Positions 427 to 23,972 are shown, counted from the stretch's first letter. The stretch: DNA of 36,997 bases from a candidate division WOR-3 bacterium (GCA_039802325.1 JBDRWH010000001.1:1-36997); one strand, 5' to 3'. Notes: generated by a model not told the origin, from the sequence alone. Made by a program: numbers and translations.

Positions 427-464
427 ACTTTTCACTTTCTAAGTTATCTTAGGAAGGAGGTCTT

Positions 465-1145: not shown

Positions 1146-1156
1146 AAAACCATAAT

Positions 1157-1228: not shown

Positions 1229-1239
1229 AAGGAGCAGAC

Positions 1240-2103: not shown

Positions 2104-2281
2104 ACAATTGGTTAAATGGTCATGAAATCTAAATCAGAAACACGAGAAATGCGAAAATCGTTGTACGGTTGCGAAAAGCGAAACGGTTTGTGTTATTTGT
2201 TTCGCTCAACAATAGACGAATTACTACATACGAAACGCTTATCGCAACCAACAGGCCAAACCGTATTCTACAGGAGGTTTT

Positions 2282-2902
2282 ATGAGTCATGATCCCTGGG
2301 TATGGATTGGTGCATTTTTGACCATTGGGATTCTCTCTTTTCTGTATAAAGAGAATCCATTTTATAGATTCTGTGAACATCTGTTTGTTGGTGTCGCAAA
2401 TGGTTATGCAATTGCAGTAACCTGGCATCTCATATTGACCCCAAGGCTGATTATGCCCTTACAGGGTGGAAACTACCTTGTGCTCATTCCTATGATCATT
2501 GGTTTACTATATTTCTGTAGATTCATCCCCAAATTATCCTGGCTTGTGCGGATTCCCATTGCAGTCGCTTTGGGTTTTTCGTCAGGCGTAAGCATTCCCG
2601 CAATAATACAGGCAGATGTGATTAAACAAATCCAAGGTACAGTCGTCTATCCCCATTTATTTGCCAACTGGCAACAGGGTCTGTGGGCAGTTCTGATATT
2701 CATTGGTGTTCTTGCGACGATATTCTTTTTCTTCTTCTCAAGAGAGCACAAAGGTATTCTTAAGCCGGTTTCTTATGTCGGTATTATTTTTATTATGGTG
2801 GGTTTCGGCGCATCATTCGGTTATACAGTAATGGCTCGTCTTTCTCTGTTGATTGGCAGGCTACAATTCTTATTCGGTGACTGGCTGGGAATTATCAAAT
2901 AA
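2282..2902 (+). CDS. Module protein D, copy 1; polytopic membrane protein of unknown family
   Basis: CAGGAGG RBS. Paralog of 20725..21342, sharing SFLYK-NPFY, FVGV--GY and FGASFGYTVMAR-SL-IGR. Confidence 0.85.
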   Translation: MSHDPWVWIGAFLTIGILSFLYKENPFYRFCEHLFVGVANGYAIAVTWHLILTPRLIMPLQGGNYLVLIPMIIGLLYFCRFIPKLSWLVRIPIAVALGFSSGVSIPAIIQADVIKQIQGTVVYPHLFANWQQGLWAVLIFIGVLATIFFFFFSREHKGILKPVSYVGIIFIMVGFGASFGYTVMARLSLLIGRLQFLFGDWLGIIK

Positions 2903-4661: not shown

Positions 4662-4730
4662 TTTTTTCTCCTTTCTTTTTTATATAACCAGATGTCTAAC
4701 CACTTTGTGGTTACTCTTTCATATATTTTT

Positions 4731-4739
4731 ATTATAGCA
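4731..4739 (-). promoter_or_regulatory. Candidate extended -10 promoter (TGcTATAAT) upstream of the BNR-repeat gene
   Basis: Minus strand reads TGCTATAAT. No good -35 is present. The 5' UTR contains a 7-bp hairpin, TAACCAC-aaa-GTGGTTA. Confidence 0.3.
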
Positions 4740-4756
4740 TCACCTCCTTTTCCTCT

Positions 4757-7405: not shown

Positions 7406-7422
7406 TTTTATTCCTCTTTTAA

Positions 7423-7453
7423 GGCGGGGTTCTGATAAAATCAGAACCCCGCC
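7423..7453 (-). other. Perfect 13-bp GC-rich hairpin in the porV-peptidase intergenic spacer
   Basis: GGCGGGGTTCTGA-taaaa-TCAGAACCCCGCC. In the minus (sense) orientation it is not followed by a U-tract. It is more likely an mRNA-stability or processing hairpin, or a leaky attenuator, than a full terminator. Confidence 0.6.
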
Positions 7454-7460
7454 TGATTTT

Positions 7461-8573
7461 TCAGAATCCAATAATCAATCCCAGACGATGAGTCGCCTTC
7501 AACACACCCTTATTCATATAGGCGTAGTCAATGCGTAATTCCCTTTCTGCCATCTTGAGATTGAATCCAACACCAGCACAGAGGTTATTAAGAAGCCACT
7601 CGGTATTTTCGCCCCAGTTTGGATAGGTATATTTTTCCTGAGCAGAGTCATACACTGGTTCAGCACCGGTCATTGCCTTCATATAATCCATATTCAAGTA
7701 TACCTTGTATCCTGTCCTCAGAAATATAGTATTCAAGTAGCCATACTCAAGACCAAGGTTTATTGTTTCGTAATTGTCATTCGGGTGATTTAAATCCAGT
7801 GCTACGGTTAGCCTTTGATTTTCACTTTCAACCGGATTCATTGCCAGACCAAATCTGAAGATCAATGGTAAGGGAAACGGAGTCGTCTTAAGAGTGACTG
7901 GAATTTCCTCATAGTCAAGTGGAGAATCAGGGAAAGGATCTGCTGACCTGTCCAATTGTCTGCCGCCGAATGTAATGTCTGAGCCAAAGTTAGCCATTGA
8001 AGCAGCAATCTTCAATCCTTTGAAACCAGTATTATAATGAATACCAAAATCTGTGCCGATTCCACTGGCTGACATATCCCAGATCATTTCTTGCACTGCT
8101 TTGATCGTAAATCCAGCAGCAAGACGGTCAGTGAACATCCTTCCAAAGGAAATGCCAAGGGCAAAATCAGAGGCATTGAAAAAGGTTCCAGTCCCGGTAT
8201 CCTCACGCACGGTTTTGGTATTTGGGTCATCCACTGTTGTATATTCCATTTTACCCATTGTCAGGGCGGTCAAACTGAATCCGAGTGTTCCCATATTAGA
8301 AAGAGGAAGGGCAACTGCGAGATATTCATGTTTTAAATCCGCAATCCATTCATTGTGCTGGAGCGACAGTTGACGATTATTCAAAATGCCCAGCCCGGCC
8401 GGATTCCAGTAGGTGGCTGAGGCATCATCAGAGATAGCAACAAATGCCTCACCCATTGCTGCACCACGACCTACGCCGATCTTTAAGAACTGGGCACCTG
8501 ATGTCCCGAGTTTGGCAAAATCTGCAAACAGGGGAATCGCTAATATCAGGATTATTGTTAGGTACCTTTTCAT
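7461..8573 (-). CDS. porV: PorV/PorQ-family outer-membrane beta-barrel protein (T9SS cargo-shuttle-like)
   Basis: GGAGG RBS and a signal peptide. The N-terminal signature GTSGAQFLKIGVGRGAAMGEAFVAISDDASATYWNPAGLG is typical of the PorV/LptO family. Size is 370 aa and the sequence ends in an aromatic F. Confidence 0.7.
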   Translation of the reverse strand: MKRYLTIILILAIPLFADFAKLGTSGAQFLKIGVGRGAAMGEAFVAISDDASATYWNPAGLGILNNRQLSLQHNEWIADLKHEYLAVALPLSNMGTLGFSLTALTMGKMEYTTVDDPNTKTVREDTGTGTFFNASDFALGISFGRMFTDRLAAGFTIKAVQEMIWDMSASGIGTDFGIHYNTGFKGLKIAASMANFGSDITFGGRQLDRSADPFPDSPLDYEEIPVTLKTTPFPLPLIFRFGLAMNPVESENQRLTVALDLNHPNDNYETINLGLEYGYLNTIFLRTGYKVYLNMDYMKAMTGAEPVYDSAQEKYTYPNWGENTEWLLNNLCAGVGFNLKMAERELRIDYAYMNKGVLKATHRLGLIIGF

Positions 8574-8582
8574 TTTTGCCTC

Positions 8583-11558: not shown

Positions 11559-14330
11559 TTAAAATCCTAAACCAACACCGAGTCGTATCCGAAAAGGATT
11601 ATTATAGTTTGTCGGATCAAGATAGTAATCTGTTCTGGTTGCCATGTATGCTGTTTTCATTTCAGGTGGTGTAATTAAACCATCATGATTATAGTCTGCC
11701 TGTGGTGAGTATCTGGTTGAGGCAATAGTGATATTACCAAACTGGGTAAGTGTAGGTTCAGCATCACCATGGTTGTCCGGATCTCCAGTAGTAGTATAGA
11801 CGTCAATTATCTGTCTGTTATTAAAGAGATTTTCAACAAGTGCACTTATTAAGAATTTTGCCGGACCAATTTTTATCATTTTGCTTGCATTCATATCAAC
11901 ACCCCACCAGCCTGGCATTCTTGCTGAATTCTCATCACCGAGCTTGTTTCCTCTCAAGTCAACTGGTGTATAAGGATGTCCTGAATGGAATGAGAACACA
12001 AACGAAGAATTGAAGTCCTGTAAGGGTATAAAGATAAAATCGTGAGGCAATGACAGGTCAAGGTTTGCATTCACAATATTCCGCTCGTCAAAATCAAGCC
12101 AGTAATCAATGACCGGCGGTTGCAAAGGTAATCCTGTAATCGGATCATTACCACCATAGTAGAAGTCATAATAGAACTCACCTGCATAAGACGCAGTTCC
12201 TTTTGCAAATTGCAGTGTGTAACTGAGACCAAATGCCCATATAGTATTGGACATCAGTTTGTCAAGCCGGATCTCAAACCCCTTAATATTTCCGTAGTCA
12301 ACATTGAAAAACTGGAAATAAGGCATTGGCAGGGCAATGACCTGACGAATCTGTGACAGGTCGTAGACATCTTTGAAATAAGCGGTAAAGCCTAAAACCA
12401 CATCCTGGGTAAACTGATTTTCAATGCCGACTTCATACTGAACTGTCTTTTCCGGTTTCATAAAGATGTTTCCAACAATGGTATTGCCTCTTGAGAGTGC
12501 AAGCCTGATAACTGCGGTATCCGTTGTACCGAACATATCGTCCAGTGCAGGCAACTGGAAATAATGCCCGTAATTGAAACGGAATTTCATTCTTTCGGTA
12601 ACTGGCAAAGAAAAACCAATTCTCGGTGAGACCCTGTAACTCTTTTCTGCGTAACTTAGCGTATCATTCCTGGGGTCATTGGGAACTTTGTAAGTGAAAC
12701 TCTTGGGATCAAAATAATCAAACCTGAGCCCAAGCCGTGCAATCAGACCTTCAAAATCCATTTTGTCCTGGATATAAGCAGCAACTTTGTAGGGTGTCCG
12801 CTCATAGTAATCCCAGAATGGATTTGCAACCCAGGGAAGATTATTATCATAGTATTTCAGATTGTAATTCACATAGTCAATACCTGTTTTGAATTCATGA
12901 ATTTTGCCGATTGCATGGGAAACATCAAATCTCGCCTGGATATCATCATTCTGCCAGTATCTCCAGACCCGATAATCACCATAAGTGTAGAACCAGTTTT
13001 CAATTCCATAAGGATTATGCCGTAATGCGAATTCTCCGCTATTCTCATATTCAGTGTGATATTGCATTACACTATCAACGATTACATCTTTGGGCGGAAG
13101 GTCACCCGTGGTTAAATATTCTATACAATGCTCTGCCTTGAGACGATAATCAGAATACCATTGATAGTTATTATCCTGTTCCCACTCATAGTCTCTTGTT
13201 CCATAGAGACGGTCATAATGGGTCATACCTGCTTTCAGTGAAAACAGGGTTTGTGCGGTAAGCATGTAATTGAATGTTGACGAAAGTATGTAGTTTTTCG
13301 TTCGGCTCATTGGCCTATTCTGGAAATATTTCAAACTCCCTGATGACCAGGTAACATACTGATCCCGTGAATTGAATCCACTCAAGGTGACCTTACCTTT
13401 ATTATTGGGCATCGTATACGAAAGTCGTGCCTGTGCACGATAAGTATTCCTTGGTGAAGGCACTTTGTATAATGCCTCGGCATAAGCATCAGTCAAGGTC
13501 AATTCTCCAGAGAGGAAGTATTTTATTCTCTGAACCGCAGGTAGAGGACCACCCAGAGATAAATCATAAAAGTTATAACCGGTGTTCAATTTATCTTTGA
13601 CAGCATCCATGGAAAAGATTTCATCGGTGAGATAACGGAAACTACCTGATGGCTTTGTACCACCTTCTTTTGTCACCACATTGATGATGCCGGAGAGCGC
13701 ATCGCCATATTCTGCATCAAAACCACCACTGACTACTGATACTTCTTCTACCGCTGAAGCATTTATCTGGGTTGATAATGCACCTGTGTGTGGCACCTTG
13801 GTCATAATACCATCAACATAGTAAGTAACCTCTTCATTTCTGCCACCACGAATATGGGTTCCCAGATTAGAAGTTGATACACCCGCTTGTAGGGTAACGA
13901 CCTGATTGATCGTAGTCACAGGCAAACGGGCAATATCCTGAGAGGTTACTGAATGTCCACTCTGTACCTGAGAAGCGACAATTGGTGGTTTTTCAGCAAC
14001 AACCGTAACTTTTTCCACTTCAATCACCGTGGGTTTTAGCCGGAAATTCAGATTAGTGGTCTGGTCAGCATTGACAATCACCTGGGTATAAGTGTAAGGG
14101 TCATAACCCAAATATGAAGCAGTTACTACATAGGTTCCTGCAGGTACATATAGAACCACATAATCACCTTTTTCATCAGTTGCCGCACCAAGTTCTGTTC
14201 CTTCCAGAATCACATCAGCACCAATCAAAGGTTCACCGGTTTCAGCGTCCCTTACCTTACCGGTAATTTTTCCATATTCAGCGCCAAACAATAGTGCCCC
14301 GGCAAGGATTAACGCCCATAGTCTTTTCAT
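11559..14330 (-). CDS. TonB-dependent receptor-like outer-membrane protein with an N-terminal carboxypeptidase-regulatory-like domain
   Basis: GGAGG RBS and a signal peptide. GKITGKVRDAETGEPLIGADVILEG...DEKGDYVV...AGTYVVTASYLGY fits a CarbopepD_reg fold. This is followed by a plug-like region and a long beta-barrel ending ...RIRLGVGLGF. Confidence 0.75.
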   Translation of the reverse strand: MKRLWALILAGALLFGAEYGKITGKVRDAETGEPLIGADVILEGTELGAATDEKGDYVVLYVPAGTYVVTASYLGYDPYTYTQVIVNADQTTNLNFRLKPTVIEVEKVTVVAEKPPIVASQVQSGHSVTSQDIARLPVTTINQVVTLQAGVSTSNLGTHIRGGRNEEVTYYVDGIMTKVPHTGALSTQINASAVEEVSVVSGGFDAEYGDALSGIINVVTKEGGTKPSGSFRYLTDEIFSMDAVKDKLNTGYNFYDLSLGGPLPAVQRIKYFLSGELTLTDAYAEALYKVPSPRNTYRAQARLSYTMPNNKGKVTLSGFNSRDQYVTWSSGSLKYFQNRPMSRTKNYILSSTFNYMLTAQTLFSLKAGMTHYDRLYGTRDYEWEQDNNYQWYSDYRLKAEHCIEYLTTGDLPPKDVIVDSVMQYHTEYENSGEFALRHNPYGIENWFYTYGDYRVWRYWQNDDIQARFDVSHAIGKIHEFKTGIDYVNYNLKYYDNNLPWVANPFWDYYERTPYKVAAYIQDKMDFEGLIARLGLRFDYFDPKSFTYKVPNDPRNDTLSYAEKSYRVSPRIGFSLPVTERMKFRFNYGHYFQLPALDDMFGTTDTAVIRLALSRGNTIVGNIFMKPEKTVQYEVGIENQFTQDVVLGFTAYFKDVYDLSQIRQVIALPMPYFQFFNVDYGNIKGFEIRLDKLMSNTIWAFGLSYTLQFAKGTASYAGEFYYDFYYGGNDPITGLPLQPPVIDYWLDFDERNIVNANLDLSLPHDFIFIPLQDFNSSFVFSFHSGHPYTPVDLRGNKLGDENSARMPGWWGVDMNASKMIKIGPAKFLISALVENLFNNRQIIDVYTTTGDPDNHGDAEPTLTQFGNITIASTRYSPQADYNHDGLITPPEMKTAYMATRTDYYLDPTNYNNPFRIRLGVGLGF

Positions 14331-14341
14331 TGCACACCTCC

Positions 14342-15376
14342 TTAATTAACCCTGATGGGTATAAGCCAGAATCTTGCTAATAATGGACTGGCAGGAGTTA
14401 CATAGTAGAATCCATCGGTCACAATTGCTTCAATCACGAGATTTTTCACACCTGTACCAGAAATTCCAATTTTTCCTGAACCATCAGGCAATTGAATTTT
14501 CTTGCCATCCTGAATCGCAAAGAATGTGCAGAGATCACTTGTAATTGTTCCAGAAAGCGTAAGAGTAATGGTCACGGAATCTCCCGCACTGTATTCCAGA
14601 AGTGAATCTATTGCGCAGAAGCGGTTCATCGCATGATGTTGATATAGGGTATCAGTATTACTTGCCCAGACCGTATCAACCTTTGAAGTATTTTGAGAAG
14701 TCAAAATTGCAGTGTAAATATATGGAATACTCGCAGCACGGTTTGGCAATCCATAATTGCCATATGAAATTCTTTTCAAGACCCATTCTCTTGGTTCTTT
14801 AATCTTGTCCACTGAATCGCCCAGTTCTTCATCCCATACTTTTTCTTTCACAGGTTCTACATAGAGATGGCGCAGACCTTCAACAGTTATTGTATCATAA
14901 GAATAATAGCCACCTGCTGTTTCTACTATTACGGTATCAAGTTTCTTTCCTGTATCACCCTGCCAGAAATAATAACCTTTGTACAAAGCATCATAATGGA
15001 CCTCCTGTATCAGGTTAAATGTATCACGAAGATACACTGTGCAGGTCGTATCTTTTGTATACCAGAGGTCCTTAAAACGGGAACTTGATGCAATCTTGTC
15101 ACGCAGACTATCCACATGCTGTTTGACAAGCACTGATTCAGTTTTGAAGTATGAATCTGCTACTGGAAATGTAACAGCAGCAAGTGTAACAGGAATGTAA
15201 CTGTCTAAAAATATGTCATCGGTCTTAAGAAATTCCGCATGTCCATCAAGTACAGCATTGATCAATGTGTCATCTCTTGGTGTCCCGTCATAGAAACCTT
15301 CTGGTGGCTCATTACCACAATTAACAAACACTAACGCCAATGTTGCTAATAGGCAAAGCCAGTTCATCTTGTTCAT
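14342..15376 (-). CDS. Secreted protein, possibly a lipoprotein, of unknown function (344 aa)
   Basis: AAAGGAGG RBS. Signal peptide MNKMNWLCLLATLALVFVNCG has a Cys at position 20, but the lipobox is non-canonical. The stop lies 11 nt upstream of the receptor gene. Confidence 0.6.
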   Translation of the reverse strand: MNKMNWLCLLATLALVFVNCGNEPPEGFYDGTPRDDTLINAVLDGHAEFLKTDDIFLDSYIPVTLAAVTFPVADSYFKTESVLVKQHVDSLRDKIASSSRFKDLWYTKDTTCTVYLRDTFNLIQEVHYDALYKGYYFWQGDTGKKLDTVIVETAGGYYSYDTITVEGLRHLYVEPVKEKVWDEELGDSVDKIKEPREWVLKRISYGNYGLPNRAASIPYIYTAILTSQNTSKVDTVWASNTDTLYQHHAMNRFCAIDSLLEYSAGDSVTITLTLSGTITSDLCTFFAIQDGKKIQLPDGSGKIGISGTGVKNLVIEAIVTDGFYYVTPASPLLARFWLIPIRVN

Positions 15377-15467
15377 TTATGCCTCCTTTGCTTTATTTCA
15401 TTATTTTTTTCCAGCCTGTTTTTTGTTTTTATTTCTCACCCCCTTTTTCCTACAATATTCTATTTAT

Positions 15468-15495
15468 ATTATATTAAAAAAGGAGAACTTGTCAA
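15468..15495 (-). promoter_or_regulatory. Sigma70-type promoter of the lipoprotein/receptor/cargo/PorV operon: TTGACA-N16-TATAAT
   Basis: Minus strand has cccTTGACA at 15495..15490 and TATAAT at 15473..15468. A purine-rich leader of about 91 nt ends in AAAGGAGG. Confidence 0.6.
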
Positions 15496-15501
15496 GGGTG
15501 A

Positions 15502-16110
15502 TTATTTGAATTTGAATTCTATCTTTCTGAAAACCCAAACCCTGACAAGTTTATCCCGTTGTTTTGCTGGAGTAAATCTATATTTCCAGACGCTTGCCAC
15601 TGCTGCTTCATCAAGAAGTTGATTACCACTGGATTTGACAACCTGGACATCAATTACACTGCCATCTATATTTACCAGAAATTTTACCTGGAGACTTCCT
15701 TCAATCCCTGCCCTTTTTACCAGTTCTGGCCATTCAGGCGGTGGCATTGATATGGGTTGTGGTTTTACCTCTACTTTAAAATATGGAACCACTTCAATCT
15801 CAGGACCCGTAGGCTGGGTTCTTATTATGTCTTCCCGGAATTCGGTTGCTGCAATTGTTTCAACTGCTTCTTCAGCAACTTCAGTTGCGGCTGCTGCCAC
15901 TGCCACCTTTGGCCTTTCCACCGGTGGTGGCTCTTCGTATTTTTCTATCTCAGCTGAGATTTGCTCAACCATTGTTACAATCTCTTTCCTTAATTTATAG
16001 GGTTCAACTTCAGCATACGGCAAGAATAGAAACAACAAAATCAGAATGATTATGCCCAGAAGCATACCGGTGCGGAAATATACACCATACATCAATTTAT
16101 GGTCGCGCAT
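15502..16110 (-). CDS. tonB: Energy transducer TonB (N-terminal TM, Pro/Glu-rich linker, TonB C-terminal domain)
   Basis: I place the start at ATG 16110, with GGAGG 5 nt upstream inside the last codons of exbD; the track's 16134 start is a TTG. TM helix, then EEPPPVERPKV linker. The C-terminal segment PEWPELVKRAGIEGSLQVKFLVNIDGSVIDVQVVKSSGNQLLDEAAVASVWKYRFTPA is typical of TonB_C. Confidence 0.8.
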   Translation of the reverse strand: MRDHKLMYGVYFRTGMLLGIIILILLFLFLPYAEVEPYKLRKEIVTMVEQISAEIEKYEEPPPVERPKVAVAAAATEVAEEAVETIAATEFREDIIRTQPTGPEIEVVPYFKVEVKPQPISMPPPEWPELVKRAGIEGSLQVKFLVNIDGSVIDVQVVKSSGNQLLDEAAVASVWKYRFTPAKQRDKLVRVWVFRKIEFKFK

Positions 16111-16111
16111 A

Positions 16112-16531
16112 TCAACCTCCAAATTCAGTGGCAAAAGTTATCTTAAATGCTCGGGCTTCCTTCAATTGGTCAAGGACAACATCCACAATACCATACTCAA
16201 TATTTTCATCAATGTTCAAAATTGTAACCAGTTCCGAATTCTCAGCAATCTTCGGAATCATTTTTGTACTCACCCTTTCTTTTGGAACCAAACTATCATC
16301 AATAAACACCCTGCCGTTACTATCAACCCAGACATGGGTGATGTTTCTTCGGATCAAAATCCTTTCTGTTGATTTTGCCTTTGGCAGGACAAGTTTAAGA
16401 TTAAGCGCAGTTGCCCTGAACACGGTAGTCACCATAAAGAAAAGAATCAACAAAAATGCAACATCAGCAGTTGATGCAGTGGGAATATCCGGGGTTTTTG
16501 TAAACCTTCTTATAATACTTTTGCGCATCAT
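16112..16531 (-). CDS. exbD: ExbD/TolR-family biopolymer transport protein (second copy)
   Basis: Single N-terminal TM (ADVAFLLILFFMVTTVF) followed by a periplasmic domain. ATGA overlap with the upstream exbD. Confidence 0.8.
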   Translation of the reverse strand: MMRKSIIRRFTKTPDIPTASTADVAFLLILFFMVTTVFRATALNLKLVLPKAKSTERILIRRNITHVWVDSNGRVFIDDSLVPKERVSTKMIPKIAENSELVTILNIDENIEYGIVDVVLDQLKEARAFKITFATEFGG

Positions 16532-16992
16532 TCCTCACTGGTTGGTATCAAACTTATCTTATTTGCCCTCAACTCCCTGCCATCCTGGGTAACAACCCTG
16601 CACAGTTTTATCTGGTCAAGTACTGAAATCATTGCCTGATATCTTGCATCCTTACTTGTCCTCAATGAAACTACAAGCAAGGTATCCCGTTCAAGAAGTT
16701 TCTCTTCAACTATTCTGCGCACCTCAGAGTATTGCTGTGGAGAGATATCAATTCCGTCATATCCTGAAGCCCTTAATTTCAGTGCCCCTTCAGGATTGAT
16801 CAAGATTGAAACAACATTTTCAGGTTTTACTTTTGTCTCAGTCTGAGATTTTTCAGGCAGGAGCATTTTAATACCTTTTTCCCGGGTAAACACTGTGGTG
16901 GTCATAAAGAAAATGATTATCAGAAACGCAATATCACCCATTGAGGCAGTCGGAATGATTGCATTTATTTTTTTCTTTGCCCTCAACTCCAT
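16528..16992 (-). CDS. exbD: ExbD/TolR-family biopolymer transport protein (first copy)
   Basis: Motif MGDIAFLIIIFFMTTTVF plus a periplasmic domain. Directly abuts the exbB stop. Confidence 0.8.
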   Translation of the reverse strand: MELRAKKKINAIIPTASMGDIAFLIIIFFMTTTVFTREKGIKMLLPEKSQTETKVKPENVVSILINPEGALKLRASGYDGIDISPQQYSEVRRIVEEKLLERDTLLVVSLRTSKDARYQAMISVLDQIKLCRVVTQDGRELRANKISLIPTSEE

Positions 16993-17616
16993 CTATTTTT
17001 TCCTTTTCTGATAATGCTCAATCATATAGTCAATCAAACCTGCAGCAACTTCTTCCATATCCTTTGTGTATCCATCAACTTTACCAGAAAAGAGAATATG
17101 CAATATTGCAAGCGGGGTTGCGATAATCAAACCCCATTTGGTCGTAATCAATGCCTCAGAGATACCGCTGGCAACGATTGTCGGTTCAACCTCACCTGCT
17201 GCTGCTATTGCTGCGAAAGCACGAATCATGCCGGTAACCGTGCCTAAAAATCCAAGGAAGGGAGCGACCGTGGTCAAACCCGCTAACAAAGCCATCCCCC
17301 GGTCCAAAAATCCCAATTCAATTGCTGCAGCACGGGCAGCAACTTCTTCCATTGCATCCTTACCTTTATCTGCCTTTTGCAGAATTTCCTTGGCAATTTT
17401 TGCAGCCGGAGATGGTGTATGGTCACACAGCGCAATACCAGCATCAACACCCTGGGCATCAATTGTGGAAACGAGTTTTTCCAAGAAGCTCTTTGGATTT
17501 AATCTTATTTTTATCAAAAGTGAAAAAAGACGCTCAAGTATTATGCCCAATGCCAGTATAATGCACACCAATAATAGCCACATTACACCGCCACCAATTG
17601 AAAATTCCCTAACCAT
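16993..17616 (-). CDS. exbB: MotA/TolQ/ExbB-family proton channel protein
   Basis: AAGGAGG RBS. Three TM helices. The conserved C-terminal core LAGLTTVAPFLGFLGTVTGMIRAF...GISEALITTKWGLIIA is typical of ExbB/TolQ. Confidence 0.85.
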   Translation of the reverse strand: MVREFSIGGGVMWLLLVCIILALGIILERLFSLLIKIRLNPKSFLEKLVSTIDAQGVDAGIALCDHTPSPAAKIAKEILQKADKGKDAMEEVAARAAAIELGFLDRGMALLAGLTTVAPFLGFLGTVTGMIRAFAAIAAAGEVEPTIVASGISEALITTKWGLIIATPLAILHILFSGKVDGYTKDMEEVAAGLIDYMIEHYQKRKK

Positions 17617-17643: not shown

Positions 17644-17671
17644 ATTATATAAAAATTACTAACAATGTCAA
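17644..17671 (-). promoter_or_regulatory. Sigma70-type promoter of exbB-exbD-exbD-tonB: TTGACA-N16-TATAAT
   Basis: Minus strand has cccTTGACA at 17671..17666 and TATAAT at 17649..17644. A 27-nt leader contains AAGGAGG. Confidence 0.6.
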
Positions 17672-17674: not shown

Positions 17675-18025
17675 TCATTTTGAACTTGCACTATAATAGA
17701 GAATACCCCCAATAAGCGGGAAAAGACCCGCACCAAAAAACAGAAAACTCTCATACCGTGCAAGCGCAAGAGAACGGACAATCAAATCAAAAATGTCACC
17801 TGGACCAGCAACGCTCAGAAGCGGAAAGTAAAAGACAATACGGTATATATGGAACACTGCCACCGCAATCAGGAATACACAACCGATCACAGGGAAAATC
17901 CATATTCCTTTACCACCGATCAAATTCAACAATCTTTTCAGAATTAGACCAAAAATAATTAAAGAAACAATGGCGAGCAATATTGCCACCATAAAGATAA
18001 TTTCTGCCAAAATATCAGCCCTCAT
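17675..18025 (-). CDS. Small integral membrane protein (116 aa, about 4 TM), unknown function
   Basis: AGGAGG RBS and a uniformly hydrophobic helical sequence. Last gene of the module-2 operon. Confidence 0.6.
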   Translation of the reverse strand: MRADILAEIIFMVAILLAIVSLIIFGLILKRLLNLIGGKGIWIFPVIGCVFLIAVAVFHIYRIVFYFPLLSVAGPGDIFDLIVRSLALARYESFLFFGAGLFPLIGGILYYSASSK

Positions 18026-18047
18026 GAGACCTCCTATTTAGAAAATT

Positions 18048-18102
18048 GAAGTTAAGAAGTTCTGAAGTTATGTGGTTATGAACCTTGGAACTTCCTAACT
18101 TC
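18048..18102 (-). repeat. 15-bp-stem hairpin (GAAGTTAGGAAGTTC / GAACTTCTTAACTTC on the minus strand) between the two small membrane-protein genes
   Basis: The arms at 18048..18062 and 18088..18102 have one G-U position in the minus-strand RNA and enclose a 25-nt loop. One arm overlaps the stop codon of 18101..18469. The arm sequence resembles GGAAGTTAGAAGTT at 395..408. Confidence 0.65.
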
Positions 18103-18469
18103 ATTTTCCTTTGGTTACTCCATAAAATCTCAAGTTTGCTACAAGCGAAAGGATTCCTGAGAGGAAGAACAAGCCATAAGCAAGGTAATTTATTCCACCC
18201 TTTGGAAGCATCATTTTTCCACCAATGCCGCAGAATATTAATTGAATCAATGCAAAAAGCAGAATGCCAGTAGGTGCAATCATCATAAACTGCCAGTTTG
18301 TCTTTTCCCCAAGCACAATCTCATACCTGCGGGCAATTATGCCTAAAAAAATAAAAGCAAGCCATAGCAGTACCGCACCAAGAACTAACACATAGTTCGG
18401 GAAAATTGCCAGTGCTTGATATGTAGAAGGCTCAATCCCGAATGGTGCGGAAAATAGAATCAATTCCAT
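18101..18469 (-). CDS. Small integral membrane protein (122 aa, about 4 TM), unknown function
   Basis: AAGGGGG RBS-like sequence upstream and four hydrophobic segments. Confidence 0.6.
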   Translation of the reverse strand: MELILFSAPFGIEPSTYQALAIFPNYVLVLGAVLLWLAFIFLGIIARRYEIVLGEKTNWQFMMIAPTGILLFALIQLIFCGIGGKMMLPKGGINYLAYGLFFLSGILSLVANLRFYGVTKGK

Positions 18470-18489
18470 AAAACCCCCTTTTTCTCAAA

Positions 18490-19077
18490 TCATTTCAGTT
18501 TTCCTAAAAGCTTATTCGTGAGATCTTTGCCCTTGGTTGGTCCGATAATCATACCTGCTGCCTTGCCCAGGGCAAAAATGAATCTTCTTATATCTTCTTC
18601 ATAAAGTTCATCCGCTTTGATTCTTTGGGCCTTGAGTTGATTTTGATATACCCTCTCAGTAAAATCACCTAAATAATCCTGGACAACTGCTTTCAGTTGA
18701 TCAAGAAACTCTGGTGCAAATCTCTCTTTTGGTTTTTCTGCTTCAACAACCTCTACCTTTTGCTTAGCTCTAATCTCTTTAATTGCGTTCCAGATAGTAT
18801 CCAGAATTTGCGCCTGGGTTGTAGCATAAATGTGTCCAATCAGTTCATTTTCAGCAATATCACAAACCAGGCTCTGGTTATTTCCAACAATTTCAATAGT
18901 ATCAATCTTAACATCACCCACTGCACCGATGGATTCAAAAAGTACTGTTCCGGTCTGCGAAAACTTTGTCTTTTTCTGTTCACCACCCTTAGAAGTGATT
19001 GTCTCTCCATCTTTCATTACGATAAAAGGCAAACCCAGCCCTCGTTCTTCAATCTTATTCAGTATCTCTTCATTCAT
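18490..19077 (-). CDS. Cytoplasmic protein with a possible Roadblock/LC7-like N-terminal domain, charged linker and helical C-terminal domain
   Basis: AAGGAGG RBS. Same overall layout as the upstream gene: an alpha/beta N-domain (...LPFIVMKDGETITSKG...), a KQKVEVVEAEKPKE linker and a helical tail. The Roadblock assignment is weaker than for 19089..19874. Confidence 0.45.
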   Translation of the reverse strand: MNEEILNKIEERGLGLPFIVMKDGETITSKGGEQKKTKFSQTGTVLFESIGAVGDVKIDTIEIVGNNQSLVCDIAENELIGHIYATTQAQILDTIWNAIKEIRAKQKVEVVEAEKPKERFAPEFLDQLKAVVQDYLGDFTERVYQNQLKAQRIKADELYEEDIRRFIFALGKAAGMIIGPTKGKDLTNKLLGKLK

Positions 19078-19088
19078 CTCTTACCTCC

Positions 19089-19874
19089 TTATATCTGCTT
19101 CATCTTTTCAATTACTGCCTGGACTTTTACCCTTGCTTGAGATGATCCCATTTCCTCAACTGCCTTCTTAACAAGAAAGTCAATCACCGTACGCAGTATC
19201 TGCACAATATCATCTTCTTTTTCAGATGGTGGAGTTTGTTTAAACTCTATTTTTTCGCCAATAATACCTATCATTGGCAATATTTCAGTGGCAATCACGC
19301 CAAGACCCTGATTAAGAATACCAAGCCAGTGCTCTTTTTTTCCGCCACTTCCAAATTCCTCAATCAGTAAGTTTATCTGGGTCAATTTTGAATTGATACT
19401 CCTGGACAATTGAATTTCGACCTTTGGAGGTACTACTGAAGGTTTTTCCGCTTCAACGACTTTTTCTTCAACTACCTTCTCCTCAACTTTTTCCTCAACA
19501 ATTTTGACTTCAGGTTCTTTCTCCACCTTCTCTTCTATCTTCTCCTCTTTGACTTTCTCCTCTTTTACCGGCAGAAGTTGTTCCTTAATCCTTTCAATAA
19601 TATCCAGGGGTTTTTCATCCCTTACCACCTCAACCCCGAGGTATTTACCGTTATGAAAAAAAATTATTAGACGATTTGCTCCATAACACATAGAAACAAA
19701 TTTTATTTCACCTAAATTCAGTGTATTCTTTATCACCTCGGCAGCCGAGGAGAAAAAGGCGGTAAGGTCACCAAGGGGTGAAGTTGATGAACCCTTGACT
19801 TTTTCAATTGAACCATCCTCGGCATTGACCACTGCATAGTTAATAATTCCTGGAATCTTATCCAATATTTCCAT
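19089..19874 (-). CDS. Roadblock/LC7 (MglB-like fold) domain protein with an (EEKV)n linker and helical C-terminal domain
   Basis: AAGGAG RBS. The N-terminus ILDKIPGIINYAVVNAEDGSIEKVKG...LTAFFSSAAEVIKN...ANRLIIFFHNGKYLGVEV fits the Roadblock/LC7 pattern (L--iPGv--a-vv--dG-i). Residues 103-145 are a Glu/Lys/Val repeat. Confidence 0.6.
   Translation of the reverse strand: MEILDKIPGIINYAVVNAEDGSIEKVKGSSTSPLGDLTAFFSSAAEVIKNTLNLGEIKFVSMCYGANRLIIFFHNGKYLGVEVVRDEKPLDIIERIKEQLLPVKEEKVKEEKIEEKVEKEPEVKIVEEKVEEKVVEEKVVEAEKPSVVPPKVEIQLSRSINSKLTQINLLIEEFGSGGKKEHWLGILNQGLGVIATEILPMIGIIGEKIEFKQTPPSEKEDDIVQILRTVIDFLVKKAVEEMGSSQARVKVQAVIEKMKQI
19440..19568 (-). repeat. In-frame low-complexity coding repeat encoding a Glu/Lys/Val-rich (EEKV)n linker
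   Basis: Residues 103-145 of the Roadblock-like protein are VKEEKVKEEKIEEKVEKEPEVKIVEEKVEEKVVEEKVVEAEK. Confidence 0.8.
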
Positions 19875-19887
19875 TCCCGACTCCTTT

Positions 19888-20724
19888 CTATTTTAATCCA
19901 GTACGGAGCTCATCAATCTTCTTCTTAAACAACAATTTTCCGTAAAGCTGTGGACCTTCGCTATTTACGAATTGCTCAAATTTTCTTCTGAAGCTATCAA
20001 TCTGATCCTGAGTCAATGGATTTTGCAAACCAACCTCTAAGGTTTCTTCATCCACTCTTAACGCTGAACCCAATGATTGATTTTCTGGTTCCATTTCACA
20101 CCATCTCTTGTACCAGTTCAATCCATTTTTTCCGAATGTTCTGAAAAAGACATTGAAATAACGGATCAAGACCGCCATCAATCTTTCTGCCTCTTTTGGG
20201 TCATAGATAAGACCCTGTTCTTTAAGCCAGATAATGGTCTTTATTGTTTCATAACCGCCTAATTGTGATTGGCTAATGATTTCATTTAATGTTCTCTTGC
20301 CGTCAACCATTGCCAGAACCTGCCAGTCTGTACGCCGCAGTGCAACTGCAGAAGGTAATTCTTTTGTTGATTTTGCTAAGACTGCGTCTCGTGGTGGCAG
20401 GCGGTCCTTGATTTTCTCAAATTCAACACGCCTCTTTTCAATATTTTCGTTTAGCTTTCCTACATCTTCAGAGATTGTCTGCTCGTTTGTCCTTACCCCT
20501 GACTCAAATGTAGCATGGTCAAGTCGGGCAAGAGAAAGATTTAGGAGTGATTCAAATCCCTTTTCCAGGCCATCAGTGGCATGTACAATATATCCTTCCT
20601 TGACATATATCTCACCACTCAATTCTCCGCTCACCCTTATTAGACCGGTTTTCTTTAACTGCACGAGAAAACTCAATAAATCAGAAACACTAAATTCCTT
20701 TAAATTGATTTCAATATCAGCCAT
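19888..20724 (-). CDS. DUF4388 (PatA-N-like) domain protein
   Basis: The ATG directly follows the TAA of module gene D2 (TAAATG). The N-terminus LKEFSVSDLLSFLVQLKKTGLIRVSGELSGEIYVKEGYIVHA matches the DUF4388 signature (L--f-l-dllq-l----ktG-L-v-----g-i-f-~G-iv-A). Confidence 0.65.
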   Translation of the reverse strand: MADIEINLKEFSVSDLLSFLVQLKKTGLIRVSGELSGEIYVKEGYIVHATDGLEKGFESLLNLSLARLDHATFESGVRTNEQTISEDVGKLNENIEKRRVEFEKIKDRLPPRDAVLAKSTKELPSAVALRRTDWQVLAMVDGKRTLNEIISQSQLGGYETIKTIIWLKEQGLIYDPKEAERLMAVLIRYFNVFFRTFGKNGLNWYKRWCEMEPENQSLGSALRVDEETLEVGLQNPLTQDQIDSFRRKFEQFVNSEGPQLYGKLLFKKKIDELRTGLK

Positions 20725-21342
20725 TTATATTGCTCCTAACCAATTGTGCAAAAGAAAATATATTCTACCGATAAACAGCGAGACACGAGCCATAACTGTA
20801 TAGCCGAAAGATGCACCAAACGATACCATCATAAACCAGATACCGATCTTTGCACCGATACCTAAAGCACCTCGGTGCTCTTTGGAAAAATAGAAATAGA
20901 GAAGAGTGAAGATTACACCAAGGATAATCAGCATATTGGAGAATGTAGAAAAAACAGACATATTTGTCAAAGGCAGGAATGTTGCCTGTAACTGCGGGAA
21001 AATATCGCCCTGGATTATCTGAGTAATAGATACTGCCATTGCTATACCCATGGTAAATGTGAGTGGAATGCGAATCATCCATGATATCCTGGGGATGAGT
21101 GGAGCGAACATCAAAAAACCTATGAAAATAGGAAAGATATTATACCATTGCCCTCTCTGGAATAAGGGCTCAAAAAGATTGGGCCAGGCAAAATCATACC
21201 AGAGCACAACTGCCCAGTATCCTGCAGAAACACCAACAAAAATATTCTCGGCGATCTTGTAAAAAGGATTATCTTTATACAAAAATGAATATATCGCTAA
21301 GGTTAATAGGGCAGCAATCCATATACCAATCGTGCTTATCAT
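20725..21342 (-). CDS. Module protein D, copy 2; polytopic membrane protein of unknown family
   Basis: Paralog of 2282..2902. ATGA overlap with C2, and its stop abuts the DUF4388 gene start. Confidence 0.85.
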   Translation of the reverse strand: MISTIGIWIAALLTLAIYSFLYKDNPFYKIAENIFVGVSAGYWAVVLWYDFAWPNLFEPLFQRGQWYNIFPIFIGFLMFAPLIPRISWMIRIPLTFTMGIAMAVSITQIIQGDIFPQLQATFLPLTNMSVFSTFSNMLIILGVIFTLLYFYFSKEHRGALGIGAKIGIWFMMVSFGASFGYTVMARVSLFIGRIYFLLHNWLGAI

Positions 21343-22160
21343 TTCTTTCTCCTCTGGGAAACCAATATCACATTGCCAAGCACAATGAACCCAACAAGAA
21401 GAAGGTGAACAATAGACTGAGCATCCATTCCTCTCAATCCTCTGCCTTTCCTATTTACGAGTGTCTCATATTCTGCAGCACCTTTTAATCCACCTAAAAG
21501 CCCAACTAACTGTCCTGAGCTCAAATATGCATATTGTTGCGGTGCCATAATCGCGGTTGTTGCCCCGCAAATTGGCACTCCATACCGGGCGTGGAAATAG
21601 ATTATCCAGTGTAGAATACCAGGATCACCAGCAGAAAAGGTCATTACTGCCTTAAGATCCTTTGCTGATTTTACTGCCCTGCCCAAAGCAAAAGAGTCTA
21701 TGGGGATACCTTGATAATCAACTTTTATTACATCCGAAAAATTGCGTCCCAGACTCAAGAGCATTACTGCACCACCAGGTCTATAACCAACATTGATATA
21801 GTCCTCACCATATTTTTTGTCATAAATTTGAGCAAGGTTGTTAAGTGCAATATTCCCAAGTTCACTACCAGCAGGCCATAAGCCCATCATATATATTCTT
21901 AAGTTCTTACGAAAACAATGTTCAATCACTGCCTCAGTTGCGGGATAGAGTTCTGCCTCACTACCTGGGTCGTAATCAGTGGAAATAAGTACTATAGAAC
22001 CGCTGGGTAATGACTCAATCTTATTGTAGACATTTTTGACCGGTTTTGTAATATCAACCGGTAAATTCAATGGTACAATCATTGGAATGATAACTGCCAG
22101 TGCAACAAGAAGAAAAATAATCCTGCGGTCAAGATGACTCAACCTTTCAATGAGATTCAT
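21339..22160 (-). CDS. Module protein C, copy 2; bitopic protein with a soluble central domain
   Basis: Paralog of 1240..2103 with TM helices at both ends. Confidence 0.85.
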   Translation of the reverse strand: MNLIERLSHLDRRIIFLLVALAVIIPMIVPLNLPVDITKPVKNVYNKIESLPSGSIVLISTDYDPGSEAELYPATEAVIEHCFRKNLRIYMMGLWPAGSELGNIALNNLAQIYDKKYGEDYINVGYRPGGAVMLLSLGRNFSDVIKVDYQGIPIDSFALGRAVKSAKDLKAVMTFSAGDPGILHWIIYFHARYGVPICGATTAIMAPQQYAYLSSGQLVGLLGGLKGAAEYETLVNRKGRGLRGMDAQSIVHLLLVGFIVLGNVILVSQRRKK

Positions 22161-22195
22161 GAAACCGCCGCTCCCGGGAAAACCTTATAGTTTAT

Positions 22196-22239
22196 GAATT
22201 CGGATTCATTTGAAATTTGCAATTTGAAATTTGGAATCC
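22196..22239. promoter_or_regulatory. Tandem 12-nt direct repeat ATTTGAAATTTG x2 (14-nt period) flanked by inverted GGATTC/GAATCC in the B2-C2 spacer
   Basis: Repeats at 22208..22219 and 22222..22233, each containing the near-palindrome AAATTT. Flanks are at 22202..22207 and 22234..22239. Confidence 0.4.
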
Positions 22240-22862
22240 TAATGTTCACCTCCTCCCATATAACTCCTTTCAATTCCCAGCAGAACGCGCAACGCCATTG
22301 ATATTAATCCTAAGTCAATGCCAAACAAGATACCCCGCTTCGCAGCAGTATTCGGAACCTGCATTATCCACTCAACAAGGTCAGGGAATTTGTGCCAGAT
22401 TGAATAACCGATAGGAATCCTGCCAACCATCACAATCACCGCAGCGACAAGAAGCATTGTCGCTTCGGGTGTCTTTGCCCTGAAAGCCCTGAATGACGCT
22501 GAGGCAACAAAAAAAGCAAGCAAAGAAAACATGGTCGCCCCAAGTGGAACCTGAAAATTTTCAAAGAAGTACAAAAACACTCTTGAATCCCTGCCACCGA
22601 CAAACCCGGTACCAAGCATAATGCCGAGAAAGGATAGTAGAACTATGCTGTATTGCCAATCCCGTAATTTGCGTTGAATCTTATCAACATTTATTCTTAT
22701 TAAATTAAAGATTCCAATAAAGACAAAAAACGCAGCAACGCCCTGATACCACAACTGAAGCAGTTGAGAACTATCCTGGGCAAATTTTGCAGGAATAAAA
22801 AAAGTTATCAGCATATAGAAACCACAACAGAACACAATTATTAAAGGTATAATTGTTTTCAT
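22239..22862 (-). CDS. Module protein B, copy 2; polytopic membrane protein
   Basis: Paralog of 465..1145. ATGA overlap with A2. Confidence 0.85.
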   Translation of the reverse strand: MKTIIPLIIVFCCGFYMLITFFIPAKFAQDSSQLLQLWYQGVAAFFVFIGIFNLIRINVDKIQRKLRDWQYSIVLLSFLGIMLGTGFVGGRDSRVFLYFFENFQVPLGATMFSLLAFFVASASFRAFRAKTPEATMLLVAAVIVMVGRIPIGYSIWHKFPDLVEWIMQVPNTAAKRGILFGIDLGLISMALRVLLGIERSYMGGGEH

Positions 22863-23938
22863 TCTATCGTATTAAAGATATTAACAAAAAATTGCCAGTT
22901 TAATATCTGGCTAAAAACCCCGATGATTATAACACTAATGAATATCAGTTTCCCGAGATCTTGTCCTTTCAGTGATCCTAACTGGACTGGTTCTTGAGAA
23001 AGATAAGCACTTGCTGCATACAATTCTTCACCCAGGAGCGTAAAATCACAGGCTGCTACAAAAAATGGTAGTTGATCAGGCATTGCAGTGCCCGCAATCT
23101 GAACTGCACCTGTCGAATGACCGGTTTCAGCAAGAATCAGTGATTCAGCATAAAAGGTGCCAAGGTATAAATTTGTTGCTGGCTTTTCACGAACCATAAT
23201 ACCATCCACTGCTGATACATAGGCAAATTGGTCGTCTGTTATATAACGGATGTTATCTGAATTATACCAATCAGAACGACCAGTTCTGGTCGCTGACTCT
23301 TTCACAACCTGTTGTGCCATAGTCATTGCCATTGAATGGCAGGTTGGTACATATAAAGGTGTACCGTATTCTGCAGTCTTCTCAGCAACTCTTGACAGAA
23401 TACTCATTGAGGCAATCGTCTGAGGGTCATCAATATCCATGATTCCCGGCACATACAAAACAGGTTTACCCATTTCAGTTGCCCTGCCAATTGCCTCTTC
23501 AATGGCACTGAGCGCTGGTATCTTTCTGATAAACAGTTTACCACCCTTCTTCGCCTGGCTTATGTAGAAAAGAACTGATGCGAAAAGGACCATCATACAT
23601 ATTGCCAGAGGCAGGCGATATAGGTTAAAATATTGAATAACAGGTTTTACAGGACCAACAAGGTTGGAAAAAACGGCATTGGAATCAGTCATACCAGCGA
23701 TCCGGTAATAGTAACCTGCACCGGGCATTAAATTGTAATCCTGATATGTATACTCAGAACCCTCAATCTCACCAATTTTTTCAAAAATCCCTTCTGGTTC
23801 AACTCCCCTGAATATTTCGATAACTCTATAGTGATTGTCAAGTTGCCAGTTTAGAGTAATGCTTGAACCATCATCATTGGGCGTGTCCAAAGCCCGCAAA
23901 TTGATGCTATATATAATATATAGTGCAACTGAAAACAT
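22859..23938 (-). CDS. Module protein A, copy 2 (full length, 359 aa): N-terminal FN3-like domain, TM helix, roughly 210-aa soluble domain, C-terminal TM helix
   Basis: The N-terminal LDTPNDDGSSITLNWQ...GAGYYYRI resembles FN3-like surface modules. TM helix is LPLAICMMVLFASVLFYI. The C-terminal third is paralogous to 1..369. A promoter sits immediately upstream of the ATG. Confidence 0.8.
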   Translation of the reverse strand: MFSVALYIIYSINLRALDTPNDDGSSITLNWQLDNHYRVIEIFRGVEPEGIFEKIGEIEGSEYTYQDYNLMPGAGYYYRIAGMTDSNAVFSNLVGPVKPVIQYFNLYRLPLAICMMVLFASVLFYISQAKKGGKLFIRKIPALSAIEEAIGRATEMGKPVLYVPGIMDIDDPQTIASMSILSRVAEKTAEYGTPLYVPTCHSMAMTMAQQVVKESATRTGRSDWYNSDNIRYITDDQFAYVSAVDGIMVREKPATNLYLGTFYAESLILAETGHSTGAVQIAGTAMPDQLPFFVAACDFTLLGEELYAASAYLSQEPVQLGSLKGQDLGKLIFISVIIIGVFSQILNWQFFVNIFNTIE

Positions 23939-23944: not shown

Positions 23945-23972
23945 ATTTTACTCAAAATAATTGCAATGTCAA
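23945..23972 (-). promoter_or_regulatory. Sigma70-type promoter of the module-2 operon: TTGACA-N16-TAAAAT, with the ATG 6 nt after the -10
   Basis: Minus strand has TTGACA at 23972..23967 (overlapping the GT2 stop codon) and TAAAAT at 23950..23945, then TATTAG, then ATG at 23938. Confidence 0.55.

Follow-up and report, generated by a model that had tools for sequence, protein, structure and literature searches.

A five-gene PATAN/Roadblock module found beside TonB systems and DUF6754 membrane modules in candidate division WOR-3 and related bacteria

The window analysed here, a stretch of 36,997 nucleotides (nt) from a contig of a candidate division WOR-3 metagenome-assembled genome (GCA_039802325.1 JBDRWH010000001.1:1-36997), contains two copies of a four-gene membrane module of the DUF6754 type, A–D. 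Copy 2 (A2–D2) is followed, likewise on the minus strand, by five genes, P5–P9, which encode a PATAN (DUF4388) protein, two Roadblock-like proteins and two small membrane proteins. An earlier note, made by a model reading the window, had described these soluble proteins as cytoplasmic adaptors hard-wired to the A–D complex. Comparison with related loci shows that P5–P9 constitute an autonomous five-gene module, whose genes travel together through several genomic contexts, and that the neighbour which A–D and P5–P9 have in common is a TonB system plus receptor, also the most widespread neighbour of P5–P9. We favour, with a confidence somewhat short of even, a reading in which P5–P9 would serve as a cytoplasmic adaptor or control platform for a neighbouring envelope machine energised by TonB/ExbBD.

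Related loci were collected by a genome scan limited to one genome per species, with an alignment of A (DUF6754) proteins as query (80 loci returned, onto which the window proteins were mapped), and by a metagenome scan with a P7 profile (51 further loci). The full collinear cluster A-B-C-D-P5-P9-exbB-exbD-exbD-tonB-lipoprotein-receptor is present in 10 WOR-3/Stahlbacteria-type genome loci, and gene order is unchanged in the metagenome loci wherever the flank suffices. The earlier note correctly observed that the D2 stop codon is joined directly to the P5 start codon in the window. In all 10 genome loci the gap between D and P5 is 0, −1 or −4 nt, and in 30 metagenome loci its median is −1 nt and its range −4 to +16 nt; far from being unique to this genome, the D–P5 adjacency is thus shared by 40 related loci. 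Further along the cluster, the median spacer is 13 nt for P5→P6 and 2 nt for P6→P7 (39–46 loci), 67 nt for P7→P8 (range 8–552), 9 nt for P8→P9, 98 nt for P9→exbB (range 26–185, a real gap in every locus) and 164 nt for tonB→lipoprotein. Strict collinearity is kept over about 40 loci although the P5–P7 proteins have diverged to 31–54% identity, and such conservation of gene order indicates that the arrangement is more than chance.

Beyond this clade the two modules come apart. DUF6754 proteins number at least 8,000 matches, and A–D, often present in two or three tandem copies, is widespread in candidate phyla of the Fibrobacteres–Chlorobi–Bacteroidetes (FCB) type; it was found in WOR-3, Zixibacteria, Coatesbacteria, Latescibacteria, Fermentibacteria, Aegiribacteria, Cloacimonadota, Stahlbacteria and Ignavibacteria. 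Among the 40 A–D loci that are informative, in that the sequence continues for 2 kb or more past the last D gene, P5–P9 are missing from 29 even by hidden Markov model (HMM) search (Zixibacteria, Fermentibacteria, Ignavibacteria, others). Conversely, L132 has an lplA-like gene, P5–P9, a gene for a 473-aa protein, a receptor gene and exbB-exbD-exbD-tonB, with no A–D in the 9 kb upstream; L138/L139 have P6–P9, exbB-exbD-exbD-tonB and a receptor gene, with no A–D and no detectable P5; and in L142/L143 P5–P9 lie between gap-pgk and a pgi-like gene, with no envelope-related gene nearby. P5–P7 alone, overlapping ruvB, are found in L086, L140 and L144/L145. Other loci hold both modules: L136 has two A–D copies, an lplA-like gene, P5–P9 and exbB-exbD-exbD-tonB; L087 has A–D, P5–P9, a lipoprotein gene and a receptor gene, exbBD-tonB being missing; and in L023 A–D is followed by three unrelated genes and then by P5–P7. 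Since P5–P9 are found without A–D and A–D without P5–P9, the coupling to D2 is an operon fusion that is specific to this clade and involves a module autonomous in itself.

These contexts bear directly on the view put forward in the earlier note, in which P5–P9 would be dedicated cytoplasmic or accessory subunits of the copy-2 DUF6754 complex. The D2/P5 coupling on which it was built stands within this clade, where stop and start abut or overlap in the 40 related loci with no strong internal promoter seen, and A–D lies near P5–P7 in two more distant lineages (L023, L136). In both of the latter, however, other genes separate D from P5; window copy 1 has no P5–P9, like the 29 loci mentioned above; and the co-occurrence with A–D across lineages, which the note had proposed as a check, breaks down for P5–P9 in L132, L138/L139 and L142/L143 and for P5–P7 in L086, L140 and L144. 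We regard a role as dedicated A–D subunits as very unlikely.

The TonB neighbourhood recurs where either module is alone. In seven Fermentibacteria/Aegiribacteria loci (L021, L022, L027, L030, L035, L061 and L070) A–D is followed by a receptor gene and then by exbB-exbD-exbD-tonB, without P5–P9, and these loci provide a link of A–D to TonB-dependent transport in a second phylum. There are thus three modules, DUF6754 A–D, P5–P9 and the TonB system plus receptor, and they are found combined in pairs as well as all three at once. P5–P9 stand beside exbB-exbD-exbD-tonB and/or the receptor gene in four arrangements (the WOR-3 clade, L132, L136 and L138), which is not what would be expected if they were a general cell-biology module, serving for example membrane organisation or division, that has no particular functional connection with A–D or the TonB system and owes its position to the shuffling of operons in small, gene-dense genomes. 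This hitch-hiking account is in keeping with neighbours that differ between lineages and with the housekeeping contexts, namely stop–start overlaps to ruvB-panB or flanking gap-pgk and pgi-like genes. Yet a collinear block that persists over about 40 loci despite the divergence of P5–P7 is unlikely without selection, and we consider hitch-hiking improbable, though less so than a subunit role in the A–D complex.

Two features of the distant contexts deserve mention in their own right. In L086 (8023..12041), L140 (1154..5124) and L144 (9153..12332) ruvB starts within the P7 homologue, and it is followed by panB in the first two and by a gene for a methyl-accepting chemotaxis protein (MCP) in the third, so that ruvB is a recurrent and unexpected operon partner. 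A gene resembling lipoate-protein ligases (LplA-B_cat / BPL_LplA_LipB, about 255 aa) lies directly 5′ of the PATAN gene in three lineages (L023, 16881..17657; L132, 8143..8931; L136, 8369..9133) and is absent from that place in the clade of the window.

P5 matches the Pfam family PF14332 (PATAN/DUF4388) with 36.5 bits, above the cut-off of 25, in an alignment of residues 7–158 that covers part of the profile. All 12 aligned orthologues match as well (best E 5.6e-15), and distant P5 homologues are labelled PatA_N in precomputed Pfam tables. The Pfam search returns no Response_reg match in P5 and thus no C-terminal REC domain, the absence of which sets the protein apart from PatA-type regulators. 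A profile search of PDB sequences with the P5 family gave no meaningful match, only low-complexity matches to designed repeat proteins, as did the same searches with the P6 and P7 families. Hydropathy analysis reveals no hydrophobic and no transmembrane segment in P5, P6 or P7.

The assignment of P6 and P7 relies on predicted structures, computed with AlphaFold as monomers from family alignments and compared with the PDB using Foldseek. The P6 model (pLDDT of 83.5, a score from the predicted local distance difference test) displays over residues 1–100 the α-β-β-α-β-β-β-α topology of Roadblock domains, and its C-terminal domain (about residues 155–260) is predicted to adopt a helix-helix-hairpin-helix-helix arrangement. 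Its top matches are LAMTOR subunits, an Asgard Roadblock protein and dynein LC7 (best E 2.5e-5). The P7 model (pLDDT 84.8) consists of an MglB-like Roadblock domain (1–113) and a C-terminal tail of three helices, in which the motif ALGKAAGMIIGP is invariant, and most closely resembles MglB of Myxococcus xanthus and Thermus thermophilus (6izw_B, E 2.3e-5; 6hjm, 3t12, 1j3w). For both proteins the top 50 PDB matches are all chains of the Roadblock superfamily, with E values of 2e-5 to 1e-3 and target-normalised TM values of 0.5–0.7. A transitive sequence link agrees with these models: the P6-family profile, which finds 35 proteins at E <= 1e-3 among 1.84 billion cluster representatives (50% clustering), weakly matches P0393 (E 5.8e-4), itself a Pfam Robl_LC7 protein (E 3.7e-9). 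The domain calls of the earlier note, one DUF4388-like and two Roadblock-like proteins, are therefore borne out, by Pfam for P5 and by AlphaFold and Foldseek for P6 and P7; as the D–P5 adjacency is also shared by other genomes, neither of the results that the note had named as refuting its view was obtained. That P6 and P7 are recent paralogues could not be demonstrated by profile–profile comparison, which was not significant. Between its two domains P6 has a Glu/Lys/Val-rich, low-complexity linker (residues 105–144; window 19440..19560), predicted to be disordered (pLDDT <50), whose length varies from near zero to about 80 residues across orthologues; P7 homologues have a comparable variable-length linker rich in Glu, Lys and Pro.

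Homology connects the last ~100 residues of P5 with the C-terminal domain of P6, as shown by hhalign (E 5.6e-5), by cross-family HMM matches and, most clearly, by blastp between the two proteins of a single locus in distant lineages (E 5.6e-18 in L023 and 1.3e-10 in L132). The PATAN domain of P5 and the Roadblock domain of P6 are thus each fused to one and the same previously undescribed domain, here called X.

P8 and P9 are small membrane proteins, as the earlier note had stated, with three transmembrane segments each predicted by hydropathy, and show median identities to the window proteins of 77% (48 loci) and 71%, respectively. The corresponding values are 54, 51 and 44% for P5, P6 and P7, 74% for ExbB and 75% for D, which means that the soluble trio is evolving faster than the membrane proteins, the usual pattern for adaptors and regulators. 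Pfam and NCBIfam scans of P8 and P9 gave no useful match. HMM-detectable P8 homologues follow P7 in L132, L136, L138 and L142, and P9 homologues also occur in distant loci. Because P8 and P9 are retained with P5–P7 in L087 and L142/L143, where exbBD is absent, and because exbB has its own promoter, we rejected the alternative that they belong to the ExbBD operon. The two proteins align with each other over their full length (hhalign, weak E of 0.01), and P9 is possibly a distant paralogue of P8.

No GTPase is encoded locally, as the earlier note had stated. A screen of the window, 12 genome loci and 51 metagenome loci (534 kb) for open reading frames (ORFs) containing both a Walker A/G1 P-loop and an [NT]KxD G4 motif found none, and the neighbour Pfam tables of the distant loci contain no Ras, Arf or Roc family. 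Given this absence from every locus screened, P6 and P7 are 'orphan' MglB-like Roadblock proteins; coupled MglA–MglB systems have an MglA-family GTPase within four genes (Wuichet & Sogaard-Andersen 2014), and none was found there for P6/P7. To call the arrangement unusual for its lack of a GTPase overstates the case, since 328 of 749 MglB homologues were orphans in the 2014 census, none of them characterised then (PMC4316618). PATAN–MglB gene neighbourhoods, too, had been described before (Makarova 2006, cited in PMC4316618).

The same data weigh on an alternative in which P6/P7, together with P5, act as a GTPase-activating protein (GAP), guanine nucleotide exchange factor (GEF) or scaffold for an MglA-like GTPase encoded elsewhere, in polarity or in the localisation of a motility or secretion machine, the operon position merely marking one target machine. 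In the 2014 census 390 of 449 MglA-family GTPases have an MglB homologue no more than four genes away (PMC4316618), whereas our motif screen was negative throughout, and P6 and P7, unlike MglB, have extra C-terminal domains and dedicated transmembrane partners. On the other side, the P7 model is structurally closest to MglB bound to MglA, PATAN genes are known beside mglA/mglB (PMC4316618), the pair of Roadblock paralogues recalls MglB/MglC (PMC7949163), and MCP and CheB genes are near the triad in the L144/L145 lineage. We judge this alternative unlikely, yet the strongest of the rivals.

Under the platform reading that we favour, P6 and P7 would pair through their Roadblock domains as a heterodimer, P5 would join them through domain X, and P8 and P9, the only membrane proteins accompanying the trio in most contexts, would tether it to the inner membrane. 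Roadblock proteins generally dimerise through the Roadblock domain, and the Roadblock dimers of Ragulator are held on the membrane by the lipid-anchored LAMTOR1. In the WOR-3 clade the module has been spliced between A–D and exbB-exbD-exbD-tonB with its lipoprotein and receptor genes, and the overlap of D2 stop and P5 start would allow it to be made stoichiometrically with A–D. The platform would set the place or time of assembly or activity of the TonB/ExbBD machine, of which A–D would be the likely inner-membrane partner, P5–P9 not being a constitutive A–D subunit; it would work GTPase-free or with a GTPase encoded elsewhere. Two precedents make such a model plausible: in Synechocystis, PATAN, which in regulators of the PatA type is the output domain, is found at the membrane and binds PilB/PilC, motor proteins of the pilus (bioRxiv 10.1101/2021.06.11.447907), and in Myxococcus a cytoplasmic platform recruiting MglB acts as the switch of a motor machine of the TolQR/ExbBD type that has TonB-like domains (PMC11761067).

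Several observations weigh against this proposal. P8/P9, A–D and exbB are not nearby in L086, L140 and L144, and the occurrence of P5–P7 alone beside ruvB indicates that the trio can work without its proposed partners being encoded next to it. Since exbB has a conserved promoter of its own, it need not be co-regulated with P5–P9. Neither P6 nor P7 matches any Pfam model, Robl_LC7 (PF03259) included, at E <= 1 or any NCBIfam model, and the precomputed Pfam field is empty in all their homologues. Their profiles do not match each other significantly, and because no sequence similarity is detectable between their N-terminal domains, the proposed heterodimer is drawn from the behaviour of the family.

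The features of the copy-2 cluster and of the genes downstream are collected in Table 1.

Table 1. Coordinates of the copy-2 cluster and of the adjoining TonB system in the window
Feature	Position	Strand	Description
Promoter-like site of the A2...P9 unit	23945..23972	-	TTGACA-16-TAAAAT, 11/12 consensus match
A2-B2-C2-D2 (DUF6754 membrane module, copy 2)	20725..23938	-	Pfam DUF6754 E 2.5e-117
A2	22859..23938	-	Fn3 + DUF6754, 2 transmembrane segments
B2	22239..22862	-	polytopic membrane protein (transmembrane prediction)
C2	21339..22160	-	bitopic at both ends (transmembrane prediction)
D2	20725..21342	-	polytopic (transmembrane prediction); TAA stop at 20727..20725
TAAATG junction	20722..20727	-	P5 start abuts D2 stop, spacer 0 nt
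P5	19888..20724	-	278 aa, soluble; ATG 20724..20722
P6	19089..19874	-	261 aa, soluble
P7	18490..19077	-	195 aa, soluble
P8	18101..18469	-	122 aa, 3 predicted transmembrane segments
P9	17675..18025	-	116 aa, 3 predicted transmembrane segments
Promoter in the P9-exbB gap	17644..17671	-	perfect TTGACA-16-TATAAT, sigma-70 type, 12/12
exbB	16993..17616	-	Pfam MotA_ExbB 9.9e-26
exbD, first	16528..16992	-	Pfam ExbD
exbD, second	16112..16531	-	Pfam ExbD
tonB	15502..about 16110	-	TonB_C 1.4e-19; ATG start inferred from orthologues
Second perfect promoter	15468..15495	-	12/12 consensus
Lipoprotein-like gene	14342..15376	-	344 aa
TonB-dependent receptor	11559..14330	-	N-terminal CarboxypepD_reg, Plug and barrel domains

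The Fn3 domain of A matches titin domains (E 1.4e-8). Copies 1 and 2 of A–D in the window are 33–57% identical, and the A–D copy beside P5 in Stahlbacteria-type loci is equidistant (about 45–50%) from both. Copy 1 (31..2902, plus strand) faces a convergent gene downstream and, as the earlier note had remarked, lacks the P5–P9 partners there. Two or three tandem A-B-C-D copies are found in Zixibacteria and Ignavibacteria (L015, L024, L032, L041, L043, L046, L049, L054, L057, L064, L069, L075 and others); in L043, L049 and L069 the other strand carries an exbB-exbD pair about 5 kb upstream.

Within the module, the window spacers are 13 nt for P5→P6 (AAAGGAG), 11 nt for P6→P7 (GGAGG) and 20 nt for P7→P8 (AAAGGGGG), matching the 10–20-nt gaps with ribosome-binding sites that the earlier note had described for successive genes; the P8→P9 spacer, by contrast, is 75 nt long, although a GGAGG ribosome-binding site is still present. 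This spacer (18026..18100, minus strand) contains GGAAGTTCC followed by three AACTTC repeats that could pair with GGAAGTTCC. A P8–P9 spacer of such length occurs elsewhere only in the closest relative, L001 (76 nt), and is 1–21 nt in most loci.

The promoter-like site upstream of A2 is the single one visible for the nine genes, as had been noted before: a consensus scan from this site to the end of P9 gave no match of 11/12 or 12/12, the best being 10/12 at 20970..20942. An element CTTGACAT with a −10 box is also found 5′ of A in the four orthologous loci that have an intergenic region upstream of A (L001, L002, L006 and L007), and L068 has TTGACA at this place with no clear −10 box. The −10 box of the A2 promoter (TAAAAT) ends 6 nt before the A2 ATG, with no Shine-Dalgarno sequence, a layout repeated in the same four loci. 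Because of this proximity and of the missing Shine-Dalgarno sequence, the A2 mRNA may be leaderless.

The genes directly 3′ of P9, which the earlier note did not mention, start with exbB, 58 nt beyond P9. The Pfam matches of the genes in 11559..17616 are all above cut-offs, those of the two exbD genes having E values of 9.7e-18 and 6e-20, and make up a complete ExbB-ExbD-TonB system with a Plug-plus-barrel receptor. A CTTGAC(A/T)...TATAAT box is present in the P9–exbB gap of all 10 orthologous genome loci and in the tonB–lipoprotein gap of all 8 loci that include this gap. Because both gaps carry these conserved promoter boxes, transcription likely falls into three units, of which the first, A to P7, probably runs on through P8–P9, and the second and third likely consist of exbB to tonB and of the lipoprotein, receptor and later genes, respectively.

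The tonB–lipoprotein gap (15376..15501, minus strand; also in L001–L007, L068 and L078) contains in addition a conserved AAAGG(A/G)GGTGA element, about 15–25 nt 3′ of the perfect promoter and about 60–130 nt 5′ of the real start codon. A short upstream ORF starting at the conserved GGAGGTGA element, with the GTG of AAAGG(A/G)GGTGA as its first codon, was considered and rejected, neither its length (2–22 codons) nor its sequence being conserved. Rfam scans with gathering and E-value thresholds detected no riboswitch or other RNA that would hint at the substrate of the receptor, and none for the AAAGG(A/G)GGTGA element. Beyond the receptor gene (3054..11546, minus strand) are encoded a 987-aa protein without family match, a PorV/UPF0164-like outer-membrane barrel, an LVIVD-repeat/peptidase_C39-like protein and one more protein, the last two with type IX secretion system (T9SS) C-terminal sorting domains. 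A protein of about 1000 aa is also encoded 3′ of the receptor gene in L087.

In bacteria, the relatives of eukaryotic GTPase scaffolds such as Ragulator, the longin/Roadblock GEFs and dynein LC7 are the Roadblock/MglB proteins. Judging from their models, P6 and P7 look like scaffolds of the MglB/LAMTOR type, yet they do not qualify as parts of coupled MglA–MglB systems. PATAN–Roadblock neighbourhoods and orphan MglB homologues are already known (PMC4316618). What is new is the fixed five-gene architecture, the shared extra domain X and the two dedicated transmembrane proteins, as well as the rarity of P5–P9 (the 35 representatives at 50% clustering) and their recurrence next to TonB systems and DUF6754 modules. 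P5–P9 thereby offer a defined case of orphan Roadblock proteins with a fixed set of partners and a recurrent TonB/ExbBD motor–receptor neighbour. Should this link prove functional, some candidate phyla would have TonB-type motors that a Roadblock platform controls in space or time, for which the Myxococcus gliding machine is the sole precedent. For the DUF6754 modules, the adjoining TonB systems in two phyla give a first contextual clue to this large family. The host organisms are uncultured, and tests will by necessity be structural or heterologous.

Among known systems, the genes downstream of P9 correspond by their Pfam matches (MotA_ExbB, ExbD twice, TonB_C, CarboxypepD_reg, Plug and barrel) to the canonical ExbB-ExbD-TonB/SusC-like receptor loci of the FCB group. 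A TonB system for nutrient uptake ordinarily has this layout too, with exbB, two exbD genes and tonB plus a Plug-containing receptor. To our knowledge, no described TonB locus includes PATAN/Roadblock proteins or a DUF6754 module, and the literature searched contained no paper on DUF6754 and none linking WOR-3 and TonB.

With Ragulator, the LAMTOR subunits of which are the best PDB matches of the P6 model, the module would share the concept of Roadblock heterodimers placed on a membrane by a separate anchor. The anchor here would be two polytopic transmembrane proteins and not the lipidated LAMTOR1, there are no Rag-type GTPases and the system is bacterial. The conservon of Streptomyces (CvnA-D) is an operon that places the Roadblock protein CvnB in a membrane-associated heterocomplex (Komatsu 2006, cited in PMC4316618); it has a sensor kinase and the GTPase CvnD, neither of which is found here.

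The N-terminal domain of P5 is a member of the family that includes the PATAN regulators PatA, PixE/PixG and SgnC, and the docking of PATAN on a membrane motor is the role proposed for it here. Instead of a REC domain, however, P5 has the C-terminal domain that it shares with the Roadblock protein P6, and its neighbours are the TonB/ExbBD and DUF6754 genes, type IV pilus genes being absent from the vicinity. The α-β-β-α-β-β-β-α fold of MglB/MglC from M. xanthus and T. thermophilus is predicted for P7 and, with less specificity, for P6, and the likeness extends to two Roadblock paralogues side by side with a PATAN protein nearby, as in some mglA/mglB loci (PMC4316618). The differences are the absence of an MglA-type GTPase within 10 kb in any locus, the lack of a direct Pfam Robl_LC7 match, an extra C-terminal domain in each protein, two dedicated small transmembrane proteins, and a distribution in WOR-3 and relatives and not in Myxococcota/Deinococcota.

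A further parallel is with the Agl–Glt gliding machine (focal adhesions) of M. xanthus, which spans the envelope, is driven by one TolQ/ExbB-like and two TolR/ExbD-like proteins, has TonB-C-terminal-like domains and outer-membrane barrels, and is controlled from the cytoplasm through an MglB-recruiting platform (PMC11761067). The cluster described here likewise encodes ExbB, two ExbD proteins, TonB, an outer-membrane barrel, a lipoprotein and Roadblock proteins. Of the Agl–Glt components, these generic motor and TonB-like parts and the Roadblock proteins are the only ones seen: MglA, AglZ and MreB were not found near P5–P9, and no Glt-specific protein was identified, no search with Glt proteins having been made. 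A bolder extension of the platform reading, which we consider about as improbable as hitch-hiking, is that the PATAN/Roadblock/transmembrane module might be the cytoplasmic switch of a proton-motive-force motor of the TonB/ExbBD type, and the whole WOR-3 cluster (A–D, P5–P9, exbB-2xexbD-tonB, lipoprotein, receptor, 987-aa protein, PorV-like barrel and the proteins with T9SS tails) one unrecognised envelope-spanning surface machine. Its role could then be motility, adhesion or spatially controlled capture of macromolecules, with the Roadblock proteins setting place and time, and it would be an FCB-lineage counterpart of the Myxococcus MglB–Agl–Glt coupling without a locally encoded GTPase. The resemblance to Agl–Glt is one of logic and not of membership.

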